Positions 4,315 through 40,967 of a stretch of DNA of 64,000 nucleotides are shown here, one piece after another. The first letter of the stretch is position 1, and each line of letters opens with the position of its first letter. The notes beneath the pieces were generated by a model. The model did not search any database and was not told the origin of the DNA. It saw only the letters and a list, made by a program, of their open reading frames with translations. The DNA is taken from the UHGV virus genome UHGV-0018629; one strand, 5' to 3'. The position numbers were made by a program, and so were the translations under genes. This stretch comes from a virus.

Positions 4315-4528
4315 ATTTGACTTCCTCGCCAGTACCTAAATCATATTCAACTAAACGAATAGGTTCATGAATACCATATCCCTGAACAGAAATTTCTGTC
4401 GTAGGATAAATTCCATCAATATCACCCATGTTCCACGCTTCGTTAAATTGCTGTTCGCCTGAATTACTAAACCACTCGGCGAAAGCATTTAGCACATCTT
4501 TAGAACCTTCAATAATTATCTTTGCCAT
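4307..4528 (-). CDS. Hypothetical protein
   Basis: 73 aa ORF, ATGA-type overlaps with neighbours. Confidence 0.4.
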   Translation of the reverse strand: MAKIIIEGSKDVLNAFAEWFSNSGEQQFNEAWNMGDIDGIYPTTEISVQGYGIHEPIRLVEYDLGTGEEVKYD

Positions 4529-4890
4529 TACAAACTCTCGGTGAAGGTACGAGCGATAACGTCGCGCTGCTGTTCCGGAGTCAGAGAGTTAAAGCGAACT
4601 GCATAACCGGATACACGGATGGTCAGCTGCGGATATTTTTCCGGATGCTTAACTGCATCTTCCAGAGTTTCACGACGCAGAACGTTAACGTTCAGGTGTT
4701 GACCACCTTCAATTTTAACTGTAGGCTGTTGCTCAATTTCAATTTCACGGGCATGCAAACCGTAGAAAATTTCTGGGTCTACAAAAGAGTCCTCTTTAAA
4801 GGTTTTAGAGACAATAATTCGTGCTTGAATACCATCTTCAAAATAAATAGTACCTTTATGTGTGCCTTCAAGAATTTGATATGCTTTCAT
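4528..4890 (-). CDS. Autonomous glycyl radical cofactor (GrcA/YfiD-like)
   Basis: 120 aa; C-terminal [63 protein letters not shown] is the glycyl-radical module of E. coli YfiD; locally GC-rich. Confidence 0.8.
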
Positions 4891-4897
4891 ATAAACC

Positions 4898-5230
4898 TCA
4901 ATTAGAAAATAAATTTATCCAAGATTGTTCTTTAATTAAAAATGGCTCAGAATCATATGCCATTAAACTCTGGGTAATTAATCCTTTAAAAGGTCCATCA
5001 ATAAACTCCATTGTAAAATATGGAATTTTATTCATTAACCGTGCATTAGGAGCAGTACACAAAACTCTACATCCTTTGAATACGCCTTTCTGCAATTTAT
5101 ACTGCTTAGGATAAAATTCGCTCAAAATGTTGTTATTTGCTAAAATTTCAAAATGATTCACCAATTTATTTTTAATAGTTTTTGGCGAAAAATAAAGATA
5201 TTCAAAAAGCTGTGTGTCTGTCATCATTGC
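4898..5230 (-). CDS. Hypothetical protein (start set at internal Met to avoid 55-nt overlap)
   Basis: ORF 4898..5278 in track; [12 protein letters not shown] start more plausible. Confidence 0.4.
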
Positions 5231-5811
5231 ATTCCGATTACGAAAAACTGTGGACGAGTAATACCACCAATGCAGCATTTACTTTTACAGCAATGTTGCG
5301 CAGTTTCAATATGAATGTCGTAAATCTTATCCATATCAGGAGATTTAACGGGCTCATCAATTATATACAAAATTCGCGAAAGCGATAAACCTCTGAACTT
5401 GCTACCTCTATTACCAATAAAACTGCGTATAGAATCAGTAAATAAACGAAAACGTATATCATCATTAGAATAACGCGAAAATTCCTTTTTAATGTTATTT
5501 GCAGAAATTTTAGCGTAAGCTGAAGTATTAGAAAGAACAATAACTGTTCCGCCATCATACAACCAATTAGCAGCAAAGTTAGTTACTGCAGTTGATTTAC
5601 CGGATTGACGTCCACCATCTAGTCGAAGTGTGCAATACTGTTTGAGCAAGTCTTCAAATGGCGGGATATATTCGTTTTTACAAATTTCTTCTACTCTAGC
5701 GTCAGAATGGTGTGTAAAAGCATTCATCAGGGATAGATAAGGACCAGTTAAAAATGTTCTCATTTTATTCTCTCTAAATTTGGGCCATTCCGTGGCGCAT
5801 GAATTGTCCAT
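5224..5811 (-). CDS. P-loop NTPase-like protein
   Basis: 195 aa; Walker A GGRQSGKST and Walker B-like ILYIIDEP; sits where denV lies in T4. Confidence 0.5.
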   Translation of the reverse strand: MDNSCATEWPKFRENKMRTFLTGPYLSLMNAFTHHSDARVEEICKNEYIPPFEDLLKQYCTLRLDGGRQSGKSTAVTNFAANWLYDGGTVIVLSNTSAYAKISANNIKKEFSRYSNDDIRFRLFTDSIRSFIGNRGSKFRGLSLSRILYIIDEPVKSPDMDKIYDIHIETAQHCCKSKCCIGGITRPQFFVIGMQ

Positions 5812-5831
5812 TTCTGTATTTACCCATTACC
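5798..5831. repeat. 34-bp direct repeat copy 1 (catgaattgtccatttctgtatttacccattacc)
   Basis: 32/34 identical to 6446..6479; overlaps start codon of P-loop gene. Confidence 0.8.
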
Positions 5832-5916
5832 GCACTTGGGCTCGACCTTATTACAGGTTGGCGGGAATCCCTCATAGAATCATGAGGTCCAGCTTGTTCC
5901 CATATTTCTTATTTGC

Positions 5917-6390
5917 TTACTTGAATGATTTGACGTACTGAATAGAACCTTTACTATTTACAAAGGCAATTTTACCATTTTTGTTATACATGGTAGCAGT
6001 ACGCTGATAGCCATAAGTTTGTTTACCAGATTGATAACCAACTAATGCGAAATTATCTTCGCCCATTTTATTCTGTTTAGCGCGGATGCGTTCATGACCA
6101 TGCGCCATAAGAACCTTAGCATCACCAGTTGCGATGGATCTACGAGTTTTTTCATCTTCAACTGTATTAACAAAGTCGTCAAATGAATCAAATTTAGCAT
6201 GGGATTTATTATACAGTTTTCCGTCTACTGCATAATTATATCCTTGTACGTCCATCTCAACTTCTGTACCATCATCCAATACAGCAGTGATCTTTTGACC
6301 TTTTTTAAATTTCAAAAGATCAGTAAAAGATTCAGCAATAATTTGAGAATTAATAGCTGCTTCAGTAATAAATTCTTGATATGTTTTCAT
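5917..6390 (-). CDS. Internal protein with capsid-targeting sequence (ipII position)
   Basis: 157 aa; N-terminus MKTYQEFITE|AA matches the CTS/gp21-cleavage pattern of T4 internal proteins. Confidence 0.65.
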   Translation of the reverse strand: MKTYQEFITEAAINSQIIAESFTDLLKFKKGQKITAVLDDGTEVEMDVQGYNYAVDGKLYNKSHAKFDSFDDFVNTVEDEKTRRSIATGDAKVLMAHGHERIRAKQNKMGEDNFALVGYQSGKQTYGYQRTATMYNKNGKIAFVNSKGSIQYVKSFK

Positions 6391-6445
6391 GTATATCCTT
6401 TAAATGTAAATAGTTTTATTCTTTAAGTTTTGGACAATTCGCACA

Positions 6446-6479
6446 CATGAATTGTCCGTTTCTATATTTACCCATTACC
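6446..6479. repeat. 34-bp direct repeat copy 2
   Basis: 32/34 identical to 5798..5831; adjacent perfect 9-bp inverted repeat ggacaattc/gaattgtcc. Confidence 0.8.
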
Positions 6480-6498
6480 AGGTTCGAACTCGGCTTTA

Positions 6499-7080
6499 TT
6501 AAGAATTACCGCGGGCTGCATTAGCAACGGCGTAAGCGTACTGAACATTAGCGTCTTTAAACGTACCTTTAGAGGTATCTATTTCTGCCTTAAAGCCGCC
6601 TTTAGTCATAACATCGGCAAATTCTTTACGGAAAGCCATTGCATCAAGACCTTTCCATGATGATTTATGCTTGGCAAATTCAAGACCAGCATAGTTGACA
6701 GCCTTAGCTAATTTATTATCAATAACCCATTTACCAGCTTTAGGCACAAACTTCGGGCCTTTTTGTTTAGAGAACAGTTTTAAATTCCAGCGACGAAGAT
6801 CACTGTCGGCTTTAACAAAAGCTGCATCTAAGTTACTAGCAACAACATCTTCAATATGGGCAAATTTAAGTCCGTCAACTTCAATATTTAGATCGTTACG
6901 CCAGCGAAGTCCTTCCCATGCGAAGGCTTTAAAGTCAGAAGCCTTTGTAGCTAAGTACCGTTCAATAGGAGCTGTTTTAGGGTCAAAGCCGTTTCCCGAT
7001 CGATAGGTCCACTCATCTTTATTAATGCCTTTGGCCTTTACTACAGAAGCTTCAGCAATAAATTCTTGATATGTTTTCAT
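6499..7080 (-). CDS. ipIII: Internal protein III
   Basis: 193 aa; MKTYQEFIAE|A capsid-targeting N-terminus; position between e and ipII-like gene. Confidence 0.75.
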   Translation of the reverse strand: MKTYQEFIAEASVVKAKGINKDEWTYRSGNGFDPKTAPIERYLATKASDFKAFAWEGLRWRNDLNIEVDGLKFAHIEDVVASNLDAAFVKADSDLRRWNLKLFSKQKGPKFVPKAGKWVIDNKLAKAVNYAGLEFAKHKSSWKGLDAMAFRKEFADVMTKGGFKAEIDTSKGTFKDANVQYAYAVANAARGNS

Positions 7081-7107
7081 GTGTTTCCTTTAAATATTTT
7101 AATTAGT

Positions 7108-7682
<575 letters not shown>

Positions 7683-8138
7683 TTAAAAGAGGCTGTTCAT
7701 TATTCGGTAAAGTGAAGGGCCCATCACATATTGCCACTGAGTACGAGGAATAAGAGCAAAAGCGTCCATCTCTGGAATCATAACGCCATCTTTATTTTCA
7801 AAATAAGACTCGCAATGGCAATTTCTGAACATCTCATGCTCTACTGGAATCGTATAATAAAATAACTGTAAGTCTTTATTACTAGAATATTTAAATACAC
7901 CTAAGTCTTCTAGAAGGTCTGGATTATAATTGCTAAAACCAGTCTCTTCTAAGCATTCTCTTCGTGCTGCATCTAATGCGCTTAAATCGGAATTTTCTAC
8001 ACGGCCTTTTGGAATATCCCAGCGATGTGCCATCATTCCAGGCTTACGAGAACCAGTAACTCGTCCCATAAATAAATCTTTATCTTCCGTCATAAAGATA
8101 ATACCAGCTGATAATGTTTTCATTTTAATTTCCTGCAT
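7683..8138 (-). CDS. nudE: Nudix hydrolase
   Basis: 151 aa; Nudix box GRVENSDLSALDAARRECLEETGF; position after e. Confidence 0.85.
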   Translation of the reverse strand: MQEIKMKTLSAGIIFMTEDKDLFMGRVTGSRKPGMMAHRWDIPKGRVENSDLSALDAARRECLEETGFSNYNPDLLEDLGVFKYSSNKDLQLFYYTIPVEHEMFRNCHCESYFENKDGVMIPEMDAFALIPRTQWQYVMGPSLYRIMNSLF

Positions 8139-11511: not shown

Positions 11512-12075
11512 TTATTTATCTAGTTTAGTTATTATAGCTTCTGCAGCAGCTTTTAGCTTAGATGCGGTGTTAATACGATTTTTAATTTCAGTATACGCAT
11601 CGCCAAGAACATCAAGGCTATCAGAATAAACACTTACACTATTGCGTTCGCTATTTGAAATAGAACCTTTAGTTTTGCGGTCAAAATCGGTGTACACGTC
11701 TTGAAGATCGCGGGCTGCCTTCTTTGCATCATCCAATGCATCAAGAGCTTTATTCAAAGCATTAACGTATTTTTTAGTGTCGAACATATTCTTAGAAATT
11801 TTAACAGGTGCGCGTTCAGGAGTAGCTAACACAGATTTAGGAACCTGAGCGCCAGATGCCAATTTCTTAGAAATTTTGAAAAATGCTTTATTGAATTTAT
11901 TTTCTTGACTCATTGTAAAAGAACTATTATCGATGTTGTACATTTCAATAGCTTTAGCTTTCCACTTAAGAAAATCGCCGCGGTCTTTTGGGTCCAATTG
12001 GAAGAATACTTTAGTAAGATCTGCTTCAGATGGTAATTTTGCTGCTTCGGTTAAAAATTCGGCATAAGTTTTCAT
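11512..12075 (-). CDS. Internal-protein-like gene with capsid-targeting sequence
   Basis: 187 aa; N-terminus MKTYAEFLTE|AA matches the CTS/cleavage pattern; Lys/Ala-rich body. Confidence 0.55.
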   Translation of the reverse strand: MKTYAEFLTEAAKLPSEADLTKVFFQLDPKDRGDFLKWKAKAIEMYNIDNSSFTMSQENKFNKAFFKISKKLASGAQVPKSVLATPERAPVKISKNMFDTKKYVNALNKALDALDDAKKAARDLQDVYTDFDRKTKGSISNSERNSVSVYSDSLDVLGDAYTEIKNRINTASKLKAAAEAIITKLDK

Positions 12076-12162
12076 TTAAAATCCTTGAAATAATTTATCG
12101 GTTGGTTATTAATTATTTATTACTTTGTTACTATCCGTAGCAGCATTCTCTATGTGATTCAA

Positions 12163-12200: not shown

Positions 12201-12674
12201 TTATTTGATTTGTTTAGCAGACCAAATGCGGTCTTTAATAATTTTTTGGATGTCTTCAACATACTCAAGAGAGTGAACATGTGGATTATCTTTGAAACTA
12301 TAAGCACGGGCTAACTTTTGGCCTTCGGTCTTAATTATCAAAAGTTCTTTAAGAATTGCTTCATATTTAGAGATAATTCCTTTAACGATATTTTTTTCTT
12401 GTGCGGCTTTAGGATCTGCTTTAGGAGCAGGTTTACCTGAAGCCTTTGCAAAAGCAGCGCCAGTAGCAACTAGACTTTTCCAGGCCATACTAACCGCATT
12501 TCCTGTAAATCCTTCTGCTTTCATGTCGCGAGCAAATTGGAATCGTGATTCATCAGAAGCATCTTTATAAGAATATTTACCCGCTGCAATGGCTGCTTTT
12601 GCAACAGCTTGAATTTCGGTGCTAGATGCTTCATTTAACACCGCTTCATTTAAAAATTGAGTATATGATTTCAT
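12201..12674 (-). CDS. Internal-protein-like gene with capsid-targeting sequence
   Basis: 157 aa; N-terminus MKSYTQFLNE|AV; flanked by identical terminator repeats. Confidence 0.55.
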   Translation of the reverse strand: MKSYTQFLNEAVLNEASSTEIQAVAKAAIAAGKYSYKDASDESRFQFARDMKAEGFTGNAVSMAWKSLVATGAAFAKASGKPAPKADPKAAQEKNIVKGIISKYEAILKELLIIKTEGQKLARAYSFKDNPHVHSLEYVEDIQKIIKDRIWSAKQIK

Positions 12675-12717
12675 CTTATTTCCTGTTTTAATTCGTGGCT
12701 TTAATATACTTATTTAT

Positions 12718-37829: not shown

Positions 37830-40964
<3,135 letters not shown>

Positions 40965-40967
<3 letters not shown>

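Follow-up and report, generated by a model that had tools for sequence, protein, structure and literature searches.

The P-loop gene beside the internal-protein cassettes of a T4-like phage is identified by homology as vs.8, predicted to encode a minimal terminase-like ATPase domain

Does the P-loop gene that lies next to the internal-protein (ip) genes of a T4-like virus genome take the place of denV, the endonuclease V gene of bacteriophage T4? The question was raised by the original prediction for a stretch of 64,000 nucleotides from the virus genome UHGV-0018629 (hereafter, the window), in which a 195-aa ORF with the motifs GGRQSGKST and ILYIIDEP was assigned to the slot that denV occupies in T4. 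The ORF is present as described on the minus strand, and both motifs are (nearly) invariant in 18 members of its family (coordinates are compiled in Table 1). The window as a whole is a Tequatrovirus (T4-like) segment, carrying tk, vs, regB, vs.3 through vs.8, the ip genes and e on the minus strand. A megablast search with positions 4500..7700 matched 924 phage records, the best of which was ECML-134 (95.6%). Across a 24-kb block of structural genes (20000-44000), the best identity among the phage records of the 2025 INPHARED collection was about 96.4%; with no record above that value, the source is a Tequatrovirus lineage lacking a near-identical genome in the collection.

Table 1. Features of the vs.7-ipIII interval, in window positions.
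Feature	Position	Strand	Remarks
vs.7 orthologue	4898..5227	-	99% identity to T4 Vs.7; named in the T4, Shfl2 and PST annotation
vs.8 orthologue, probable true CDS (179 aa plus stop)	5224..5763	-	single-domain P-loop/RecA-like ATPase (predicted)
ORF, 195 aa	5224..5811	-	mechanical ORF call
Walker B, ILYIIDEP, putative catalytic Glu137	5350..5373	-	aligned to gp17 MIYIDE(256)
Walker A, GGRQSGKST (terminase-like R-Q-x-G-K-[ST])	5590..5616	-	aligned to gp17 SRQLGKT
16-codon N-terminal extension of the 195-aa ORF	5764..5811	-	probably untranslated; not conserved in the family alignment
vs.8 non-coding leader, common to T4	5764..5901	-	from alignments; 3' limit of the exchanged cassette
56-nt direct repeat, copy A	5798..5853	.	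in the vs.8 leader; 80% identity to copy B
ip4 (IpIV), internal virion protein, DUF7412	5917..6390	-	occupies the place of T4 ipII+denV
56-nt direct repeat, copy B	6446..6501	.	begins at the ipIII stop codon
ipIII, internal virion protein	6499..7080	-	96% identical to T4 IpIII; phrog_5341; conserved with T4

The identity of the P-loop ORF emerged from comparison with the T4 proteome and its annotation. When T4 proteins were searched against the window by tblastn, Vs.8 matched 5227..5811 and Vs.7 matched 4901..5227, with the start of vs.7 overlapping the stop codon of the P-loop gene (ATGA). The 195-aa product matched phrog_1488 over residues 19-195 (E=7e-79) and shares 94% identity (93.9%) with T4 Vs.8 over the conserved 179 aa; moreover, the same ORF is named Vs.8 in the annotation of both Shfl2 and PST. 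Its place, with the ip/denV cassettes on one side and, downstream, the vs genes that lead towards regB on the other, is the same in T4, Shfl2, PST, ECML-134, CGG4-1 and TG1. Judged by homology and gene order, the P-loop ORF is the orthologue of T4 vs.8. The annotated order in T4 is vs.7-vs.8-denV-ipII-ipIII-e, and that of the window is vs.7-vs.8-ip4-ipIII-e. Since vs.8 sits beside denV in T4 too, the P-loop gene replaces nothing, and the denV slot proposed for it in the original prediction belongs to a different part of the locus. T4 vs.8 adjoins denV, which makes the P-loop gene a conserved neighbour in T4 as well—an arrangement that the original prediction had set out beforehand as evidence against itself. 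We therefore give next to no credence to a lineage-specific replacement of denV by the insertion of a novel P-loop NTPase gene: the ORF does adjoin an ip gene where denV would come next in T4, but T4 carries this same gene immediately beyond denV, many of the 1010 phage records with vs.8 contain denV as well, and the adjoining ip gene is ip4 instead of ipII. The description of the gene as an uncharacterised replacement thus survives in its first half only—Vs.8 is uncharacterised, whereas it substitutes for nothing that T4 has in its stead and, given its occurrence in so many records, is not new. The record is corrected here, with the P-loop gene as vs.8 and its neighbour as ip4.

Current GenBank labels of vs.8 orthologues are inconsistent, ranging over 'endoribonuclease', 'RegB domain-containing protein', 'terminase large subunit', 'toxin' and 'putative 25.0 kDa protein'; where RegB is named, the label seems to have been carried over in error from the neighbour gene. 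The same region of the window also holds an orthologue of vs.6 at 4528-4890 (-), a known T4 gene encoding a protein similar to the autonomous glycyl-radical cofactor GrcA/YfiD (Pfam Gly_radical, E=2.5e-18).

The alignments also bear on where the gene begins. Members of the Vs.8 family are 173-181 aa long and start with M-[RKN]-T-F-L. Just upstream of ATG 5763, indels relative to the window amount to +8 nt in T4, +3 nt in PST, +1 nt in Shfl2 and -1 nt in T2; as several of these are not divisible by three, the stretch is taken as non-coding and the CDS as 5224..5763. Hence, the start codon of vs.8 is most likely ATG 5763, yielding a protein of 179 aa, and not the codon at 5811. In T4 (NC_000866; positions 2763-2882 of the extracted locus, corresponding to window 5764-5875), the frame above the conserved ATG is open, which is the case in T4 only: it is closed or shifted in the window, PST, Shfl2, T2 and ECML-134. 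The T4 frame of 219 aa stays open through 8 nt that are inserted, in T4 alone, shortly before the conserved ATG, and the comparison suggests that the 219-aa annotation of T4 Vs.8 is over-extended. The start codon of vs.8 is now placed more accurately, and the gene extent first proposed (5224-5916) can be trimmed: 5224..5763 stands as the CDS, the 195-aa ORF is probably 16 codons over-long, and 5764..5916, as read from these alignments, is a non-coding leader outside the gene.

The neighbour gene at 5917..6390 had been taken for ipII. Its product matched Pfam DUF7412 (E=6e-96) and phrog_3155 (E=6e-102), is 100% identical to the Ip4 proteins of T2, Shfl2, PST and ECML-134, and is encoded by a gene named Ip4/IpIV in the Shfl2 and PST annotation. 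An assignment to IpII was rejected, with 33% identity over 79 residues to the T4 protein (E=2e-4); among ip genes, clear conservation is found only in the N-terminal leader of ~13 residues. In an alignment of the window with T4, Shfl2 and PST, homology to T4 covers vs.7, vs.8 and a leader of ~140 nt, extending up to window ~5901—a position whose T4 equivalent lies directly after the denV stop codon. From the opposite flank, T4 homology spans ipIII, is found again over the MKTYQEFI leader and the short region upstream of the ip gene, and ends inside the ip gene body. From the homology boundaries on both sides it follows that the exchanged unit is 'ipII body + denV' in T4 and 'ip4 body' in the window. 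The interval from vs.8 to e is a known hyper-variable cassette region, holding ip genes and, in some phages, denV; very probably, the locus is a normal T-even vs.7-vs.8-[ip cassettes]-e region in the T2-type configuration.

Across this region, vs.8 serves as a fixed anchor gene, shared by T4 and about 1000 other Tevenvirinae genomes. The exchanged segment is delimited at its 5' end by the conserved ip upstream region with the MKTYQEFI capsid-targeting leader, and at its 3' end by the conserved vs.8 leader; to judge from these boundaries, the swap would fit homologous recombination between short conserved flanks. A polymorphism of the ip locus was reportedly described by Repoila et al. in 1994, and the picture obtained here agrees with it. 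Hyperplastic regions of T4-type genomes have been modeled as non-essential cassettes with short conserved flanks that are exchanged among close relatives (PeSL model, Arbiol et al. 2010, PMC2839356). The ip upstream region, together with a capsid-targeting leader of the MKTYQEFI type, is found in four copies (6359-6405, 7049-7095, 12044-12090 and 12643-12689), and the window must therefore contain at least four internal-protein genes: ip4, ipIII, 11512..12075 and one ending near 12660.

Two copies of a 56-nt direct repeat bracket ip4 (Table 1). Copy B is also found in ECML-134 and Shfl2, and is absent from T4, PST and T2; the repeat could be a recombination substrate for the gain or loss of ip4. 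An 11-bp hairpin (GGACAATTC..GAATTGTCC core) lies at 6431-6458 in the ipIII-ip4 intergenic region, inside repeat copy B, and the copy upstream of vs.8 retains it in degenerate form only. A separate, small hairpin (CCTCAT-N6-ATGAGG, 5870..5887, minus strand) is located where the T4-homologous vs.8 leader begins; in a comparison of six phages, every substitution is confined to its loop, and it shows no U-tract and no significant overall fold. The leader, which is GC-richer and conserved, was tested as an RNA element, a candidate that was rejected: Rfam returned only chance matches, far below gathering scores, for the 5812..5916 gap and the leader, the fold z-score was -0.03, and conservation (86-98%) was no higher than that of the adjacent coding sequence (93-95%). 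A scan for promoters and terminators over 4800..7800 yielded nothing above shuffle expectation and placed nothing for vs.8.

How widespread is this arrangement? Using a 501-nt probe across the vs.8/ip4 junction, counted at a coverage of at least 80%, we found the junction in 311 phage records, including T2, RB27, HY01, pSs-1 and phiD1; in denV-carrying records, the probe matched in its vs.8 half only, up to window ~5903-5906. The T2 locus reads vs.7, a frameshifted vs.8, ip4 and e, and in T6 regB abuts e, with the block from vs.3 through ipIII deleted altogether. The T2-like lineage put forward in the original prediction is borne out in this respect, as T2 shares the vs.8-ip4 junction and a 100% identical Ip4 protein, with T6 lacking the whole block. 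In other genera the cassettes vary and the position of vs.8 remains constant, as seen in the Gelderlandvirus CGG4-1 (denV-ip4-ip-vs.8) and the Tegunavirus TG1 (ip-denV-ip-vs.8). A functional link between vs.8 and denV by adjacency was considered and dismissed, since ip genes separate the two in both of these phages. The T2-type vs.8/ip4 arrangement is common and already known; as a textbook cassette polymorphism in the T-even internal-protein region, the locus matters little in itself.

The absence of a DenV-like ORF from the window, as originally proposed, held up: tblastn with DenV gave a best E-value of 9.8 over the 64 kb, and an HMM built from 3 DenV sequences gave a best E-value of 6.9 on the six-frame translation of the window, versus 2e-89 for the T4 control. 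The complete genome of ECML-134, the locally closest relative with the same arrangement, was used as a proxy for the genome outside the window and contains no denV either (best E-values of 2.6 by tblastn and 0.015 by HMM). The gene is otherwise widespread: 1119 phage records carry it, among them Tequatroviruses whose allele is 78% identical. T2 and T6 are more UV-sensitive than T4, a difference that maps to the v/denV function, and the absence of denV is the classical explanation for the higher UV sensitivity of T2-like phages. Most likely, this phage lacks a pyrimidine-dimer glycosylase, and it would then display T2-like rather than T4-like UV sensitivity. Because ECML-134, with its matching arrangement, is devoid of denV genome-wide, the loss of the gene along with T2-like UV sensitivity is plausible here, and we consider it highly likely, as well as already known. 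That denV instead persists elsewhere in this genome, outside the window, appears very improbable. The window amounts to about 38% of an estimated 167-kb genome, and denV and the ip genes are shuffled cassettes; yet each denV-carrying T4-like locus that was inspected has the gene between e and vs.8, an interval that is wholly contained in the window and lacks it, and the complete ECML-134 genome again argues against a second location.

With the identity of the gene in place, what kind of protein might Vs.8 be? An alignment of 18 family members revealed invariant residues at D49-G-G-R-Q-S-G-K56, R113, R124-G125, I134-I135, E137-P138 and the C-terminal Q179, with D136 nearly so. The two family motifs, a Walker A of the form DGGRQSGK[ST] and a Walker B of the form IIDEP, are both present in the window protein, and their (near) invariance in these members indicates that the Walker motifs are not due to chance. 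The AlphaFold2 model (pLDDT 79.6, pTM 0.81) features one five-stranded RecA-like domain behind an N-terminal helix. When a profile of 38 family members was compared with the PDB, the ATPase domains of the large terminase gp17 ranked first (3ezk, E=6e-7; 2o0h, E=1e-6), with RQsGKT of Vs.8 placed opposite SRQLGKT of gp17 and the fRG...IIDE segment likewise paired with its gp17 counterpart; the Walker regions aligned to gp17 residues 160-167 and 245-256. Moreover, three family members matched phrog_2, the large terminase family (E=2e-6, 5e-8 and 2e-4). The curated threshold of Pfam Terminase_6N was not passed (14.2 bits against a cut-off of 22), with sub-threshold matches in 9 of the 38 members, and hhalign against a single gp17 sequence returned a probability of only 11.6%. 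In fold searches, helicase RecA1 domains ranked as high as terminases, and sequence profiles discriminate better than fold searches for this protein. A Pfam 'Conotoxin' match to the Cys-rich loop at the C-terminus was dismissed as noise; it stays below threshold and maps to segment 156-168, where the pLDDT is low.

The domain content narrows the assignment further. With 179 aa, Vs.8 ends after the fifth core strand and lacks both ATPase subdomain II (the lid) and the C-terminal RNase-H-like nuclease of terminases; the two tandem RecA-like domains of SF1/SF2 helicases are not found in it either. Lacking the lid subdomain and the nuclease domain, Vs.8 is not a terminase, and the window encodes its own full-length gp17 at 39135..40967. 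From its profile matches and predicted fold, the description that suits Vs.8 best is that of a free-standing homologue of the terminase-type ASCE ATPase core; the recognition of a putative minimal terminase-like ATPase domain in this family is only mildly new. We also weighed whether Vs.8 could be a small-molecule P-loop enzyme of the nucleoside/nucleotide kinase type rather than a motor-type ASCE ATPase, a reading compatible with its size—about 180 aa, as is typical of such kinases—and with weak profile matches to uridine-cytidine kinase and thymidine kinase (E 0.5-0.9). The conserved Glu that follows Walker B (DE), the top fold and profile matches to RecA-like helicase/terminase domains and the lack of any significant match to a kinase family make this quite improbable.

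As a terminase-type ATPase core, Vs.8 would bind ATP through K56 and S57/T58 and hydrolyse it using E137, with an arginine finger possibly provided by R113 or R124, whether in an oligomer or together with a partner. The protein probably acts in one of these two states, as a dispensable accessory factor. The vs.8 gene was found in 1010 phage records, with a query coverage of at least 80% in 1008, and T4 Vs.8 has been classed as early at the RNA and protein level (PMC9697503, supplement files 4 and 6). Narrow and confined to phages, the family forms 27 clusters in a set of 5.8 billion proteins; among 1.84 billion proteins, 50 representatives were recovered at E<=1e-3, nearly all of about 90-185 aa, the shorter ones being partial matches. 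In T2 (AP018813, 5757-6400) the gene is broken into three frames, in Shfl2 it carries a 1-nt deletion (~2729-2770 of the extracted locus), and in T6 (AP018814, 4490-5507) it is missing with the rest of the vs.3-ipIII block. Frameshifted in two of these phages and deleted in the third, vs.8 is dispensable and has been lost repeatedly in nature.

These losses, together with the single domain that lacks lid and nuclease, might also be expected if Vs.8 were what remains of a terminase-like or helicase-like gene, decaying or catalytically dead and without current function. We regard such a state as improbable, given that all but two of the records with vs.8 keep it at the coverage given above, that the catalytic residues do not vary between genera even where identity falls to about 40%, and that the protein is detected early in T4 infection. 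A search of the PADLOC defence and anti-defence families gave generic weak AAA matches only (E>=0.01), NCBIfam gave no match to Vs.8, and no fixed partner gene was found, the downstream gene being vs.7 in the window, vs.5-like in CGG4-1 and phrog_11888 in TG1. In the literature searched on Vs.8, no experiment was found, and nothing beyond the expression class. Many structurally similar proteins of about 150-180 aa occur in T4-like and jumbo phages. A more speculative proposal, to which we assign a rather low probability, is that Vs.8 and these proteins constitute an unrecognised class of free-standing, early, terminase-ATPase-like single-domain NTPases with a dedicated role in host takeover, in counter-defence or in interfering with competing elements at the level of packaging or DNA transactions; failing that, they would be inert relics. 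As a conserved, uncharacterised early gene, vs.8 would be cheap to test biochemically.

Comparison with known systems places these features in context. As in the PeSL model (PMC2839356), the cassette described here is flanked on both sides—by the ip leader, the vs.8 leader and the 56-nt direct repeat around ip4—but the sigma-70 promoter-plus-stem-loop unit of that model was not detected at the window flanks, and the recombination would be deduced from the flanks themselves. T4 DenV (endonuclease V, a pyrimidine-dimer DNA glycosylase) has no counterpart by sequence similarity anywhere in the window. The T2-type ip locus of T2, RB27, PST, Shfl2 and ECML-134 shares with the window the same vs.8/ip4 junction, an identical Ip4 and the lack of denV; T2 additionally lacks ipIII and carries a frameshifted vs.8, whereas the window retains ipIII and an intact vs.8. 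T4 Vs.8 itself (T4p119, NP_049732; 'conserved hypothetical protein'; phrog_1488) belongs to the same family as the window protein and has in common with it the position downstream of the ip/denV cassettes, the vs.7 overlap and the Walker motifs; it differs in its annotated 219-aa form with an N-terminal extension, a frame that is closed in the window, where the conserved protein has 179 aa. Finally, the gp17 large-terminase ATPase (PDB 2o0h and 3ezk; Terminase_6N) shares with Vs.8 the RQxGK[ST] P-loop, the RG motif and an hhhhDE Walker B with a catalytic Glu. Only about 120-135 residues of Vs.8 align to gp17, the N-terminal subdomain II (lid) and C-terminal nuclease having no equivalent in the smaller protein, and the two differ in timing as well—late expression for gp17, and early expression for Vs.8.
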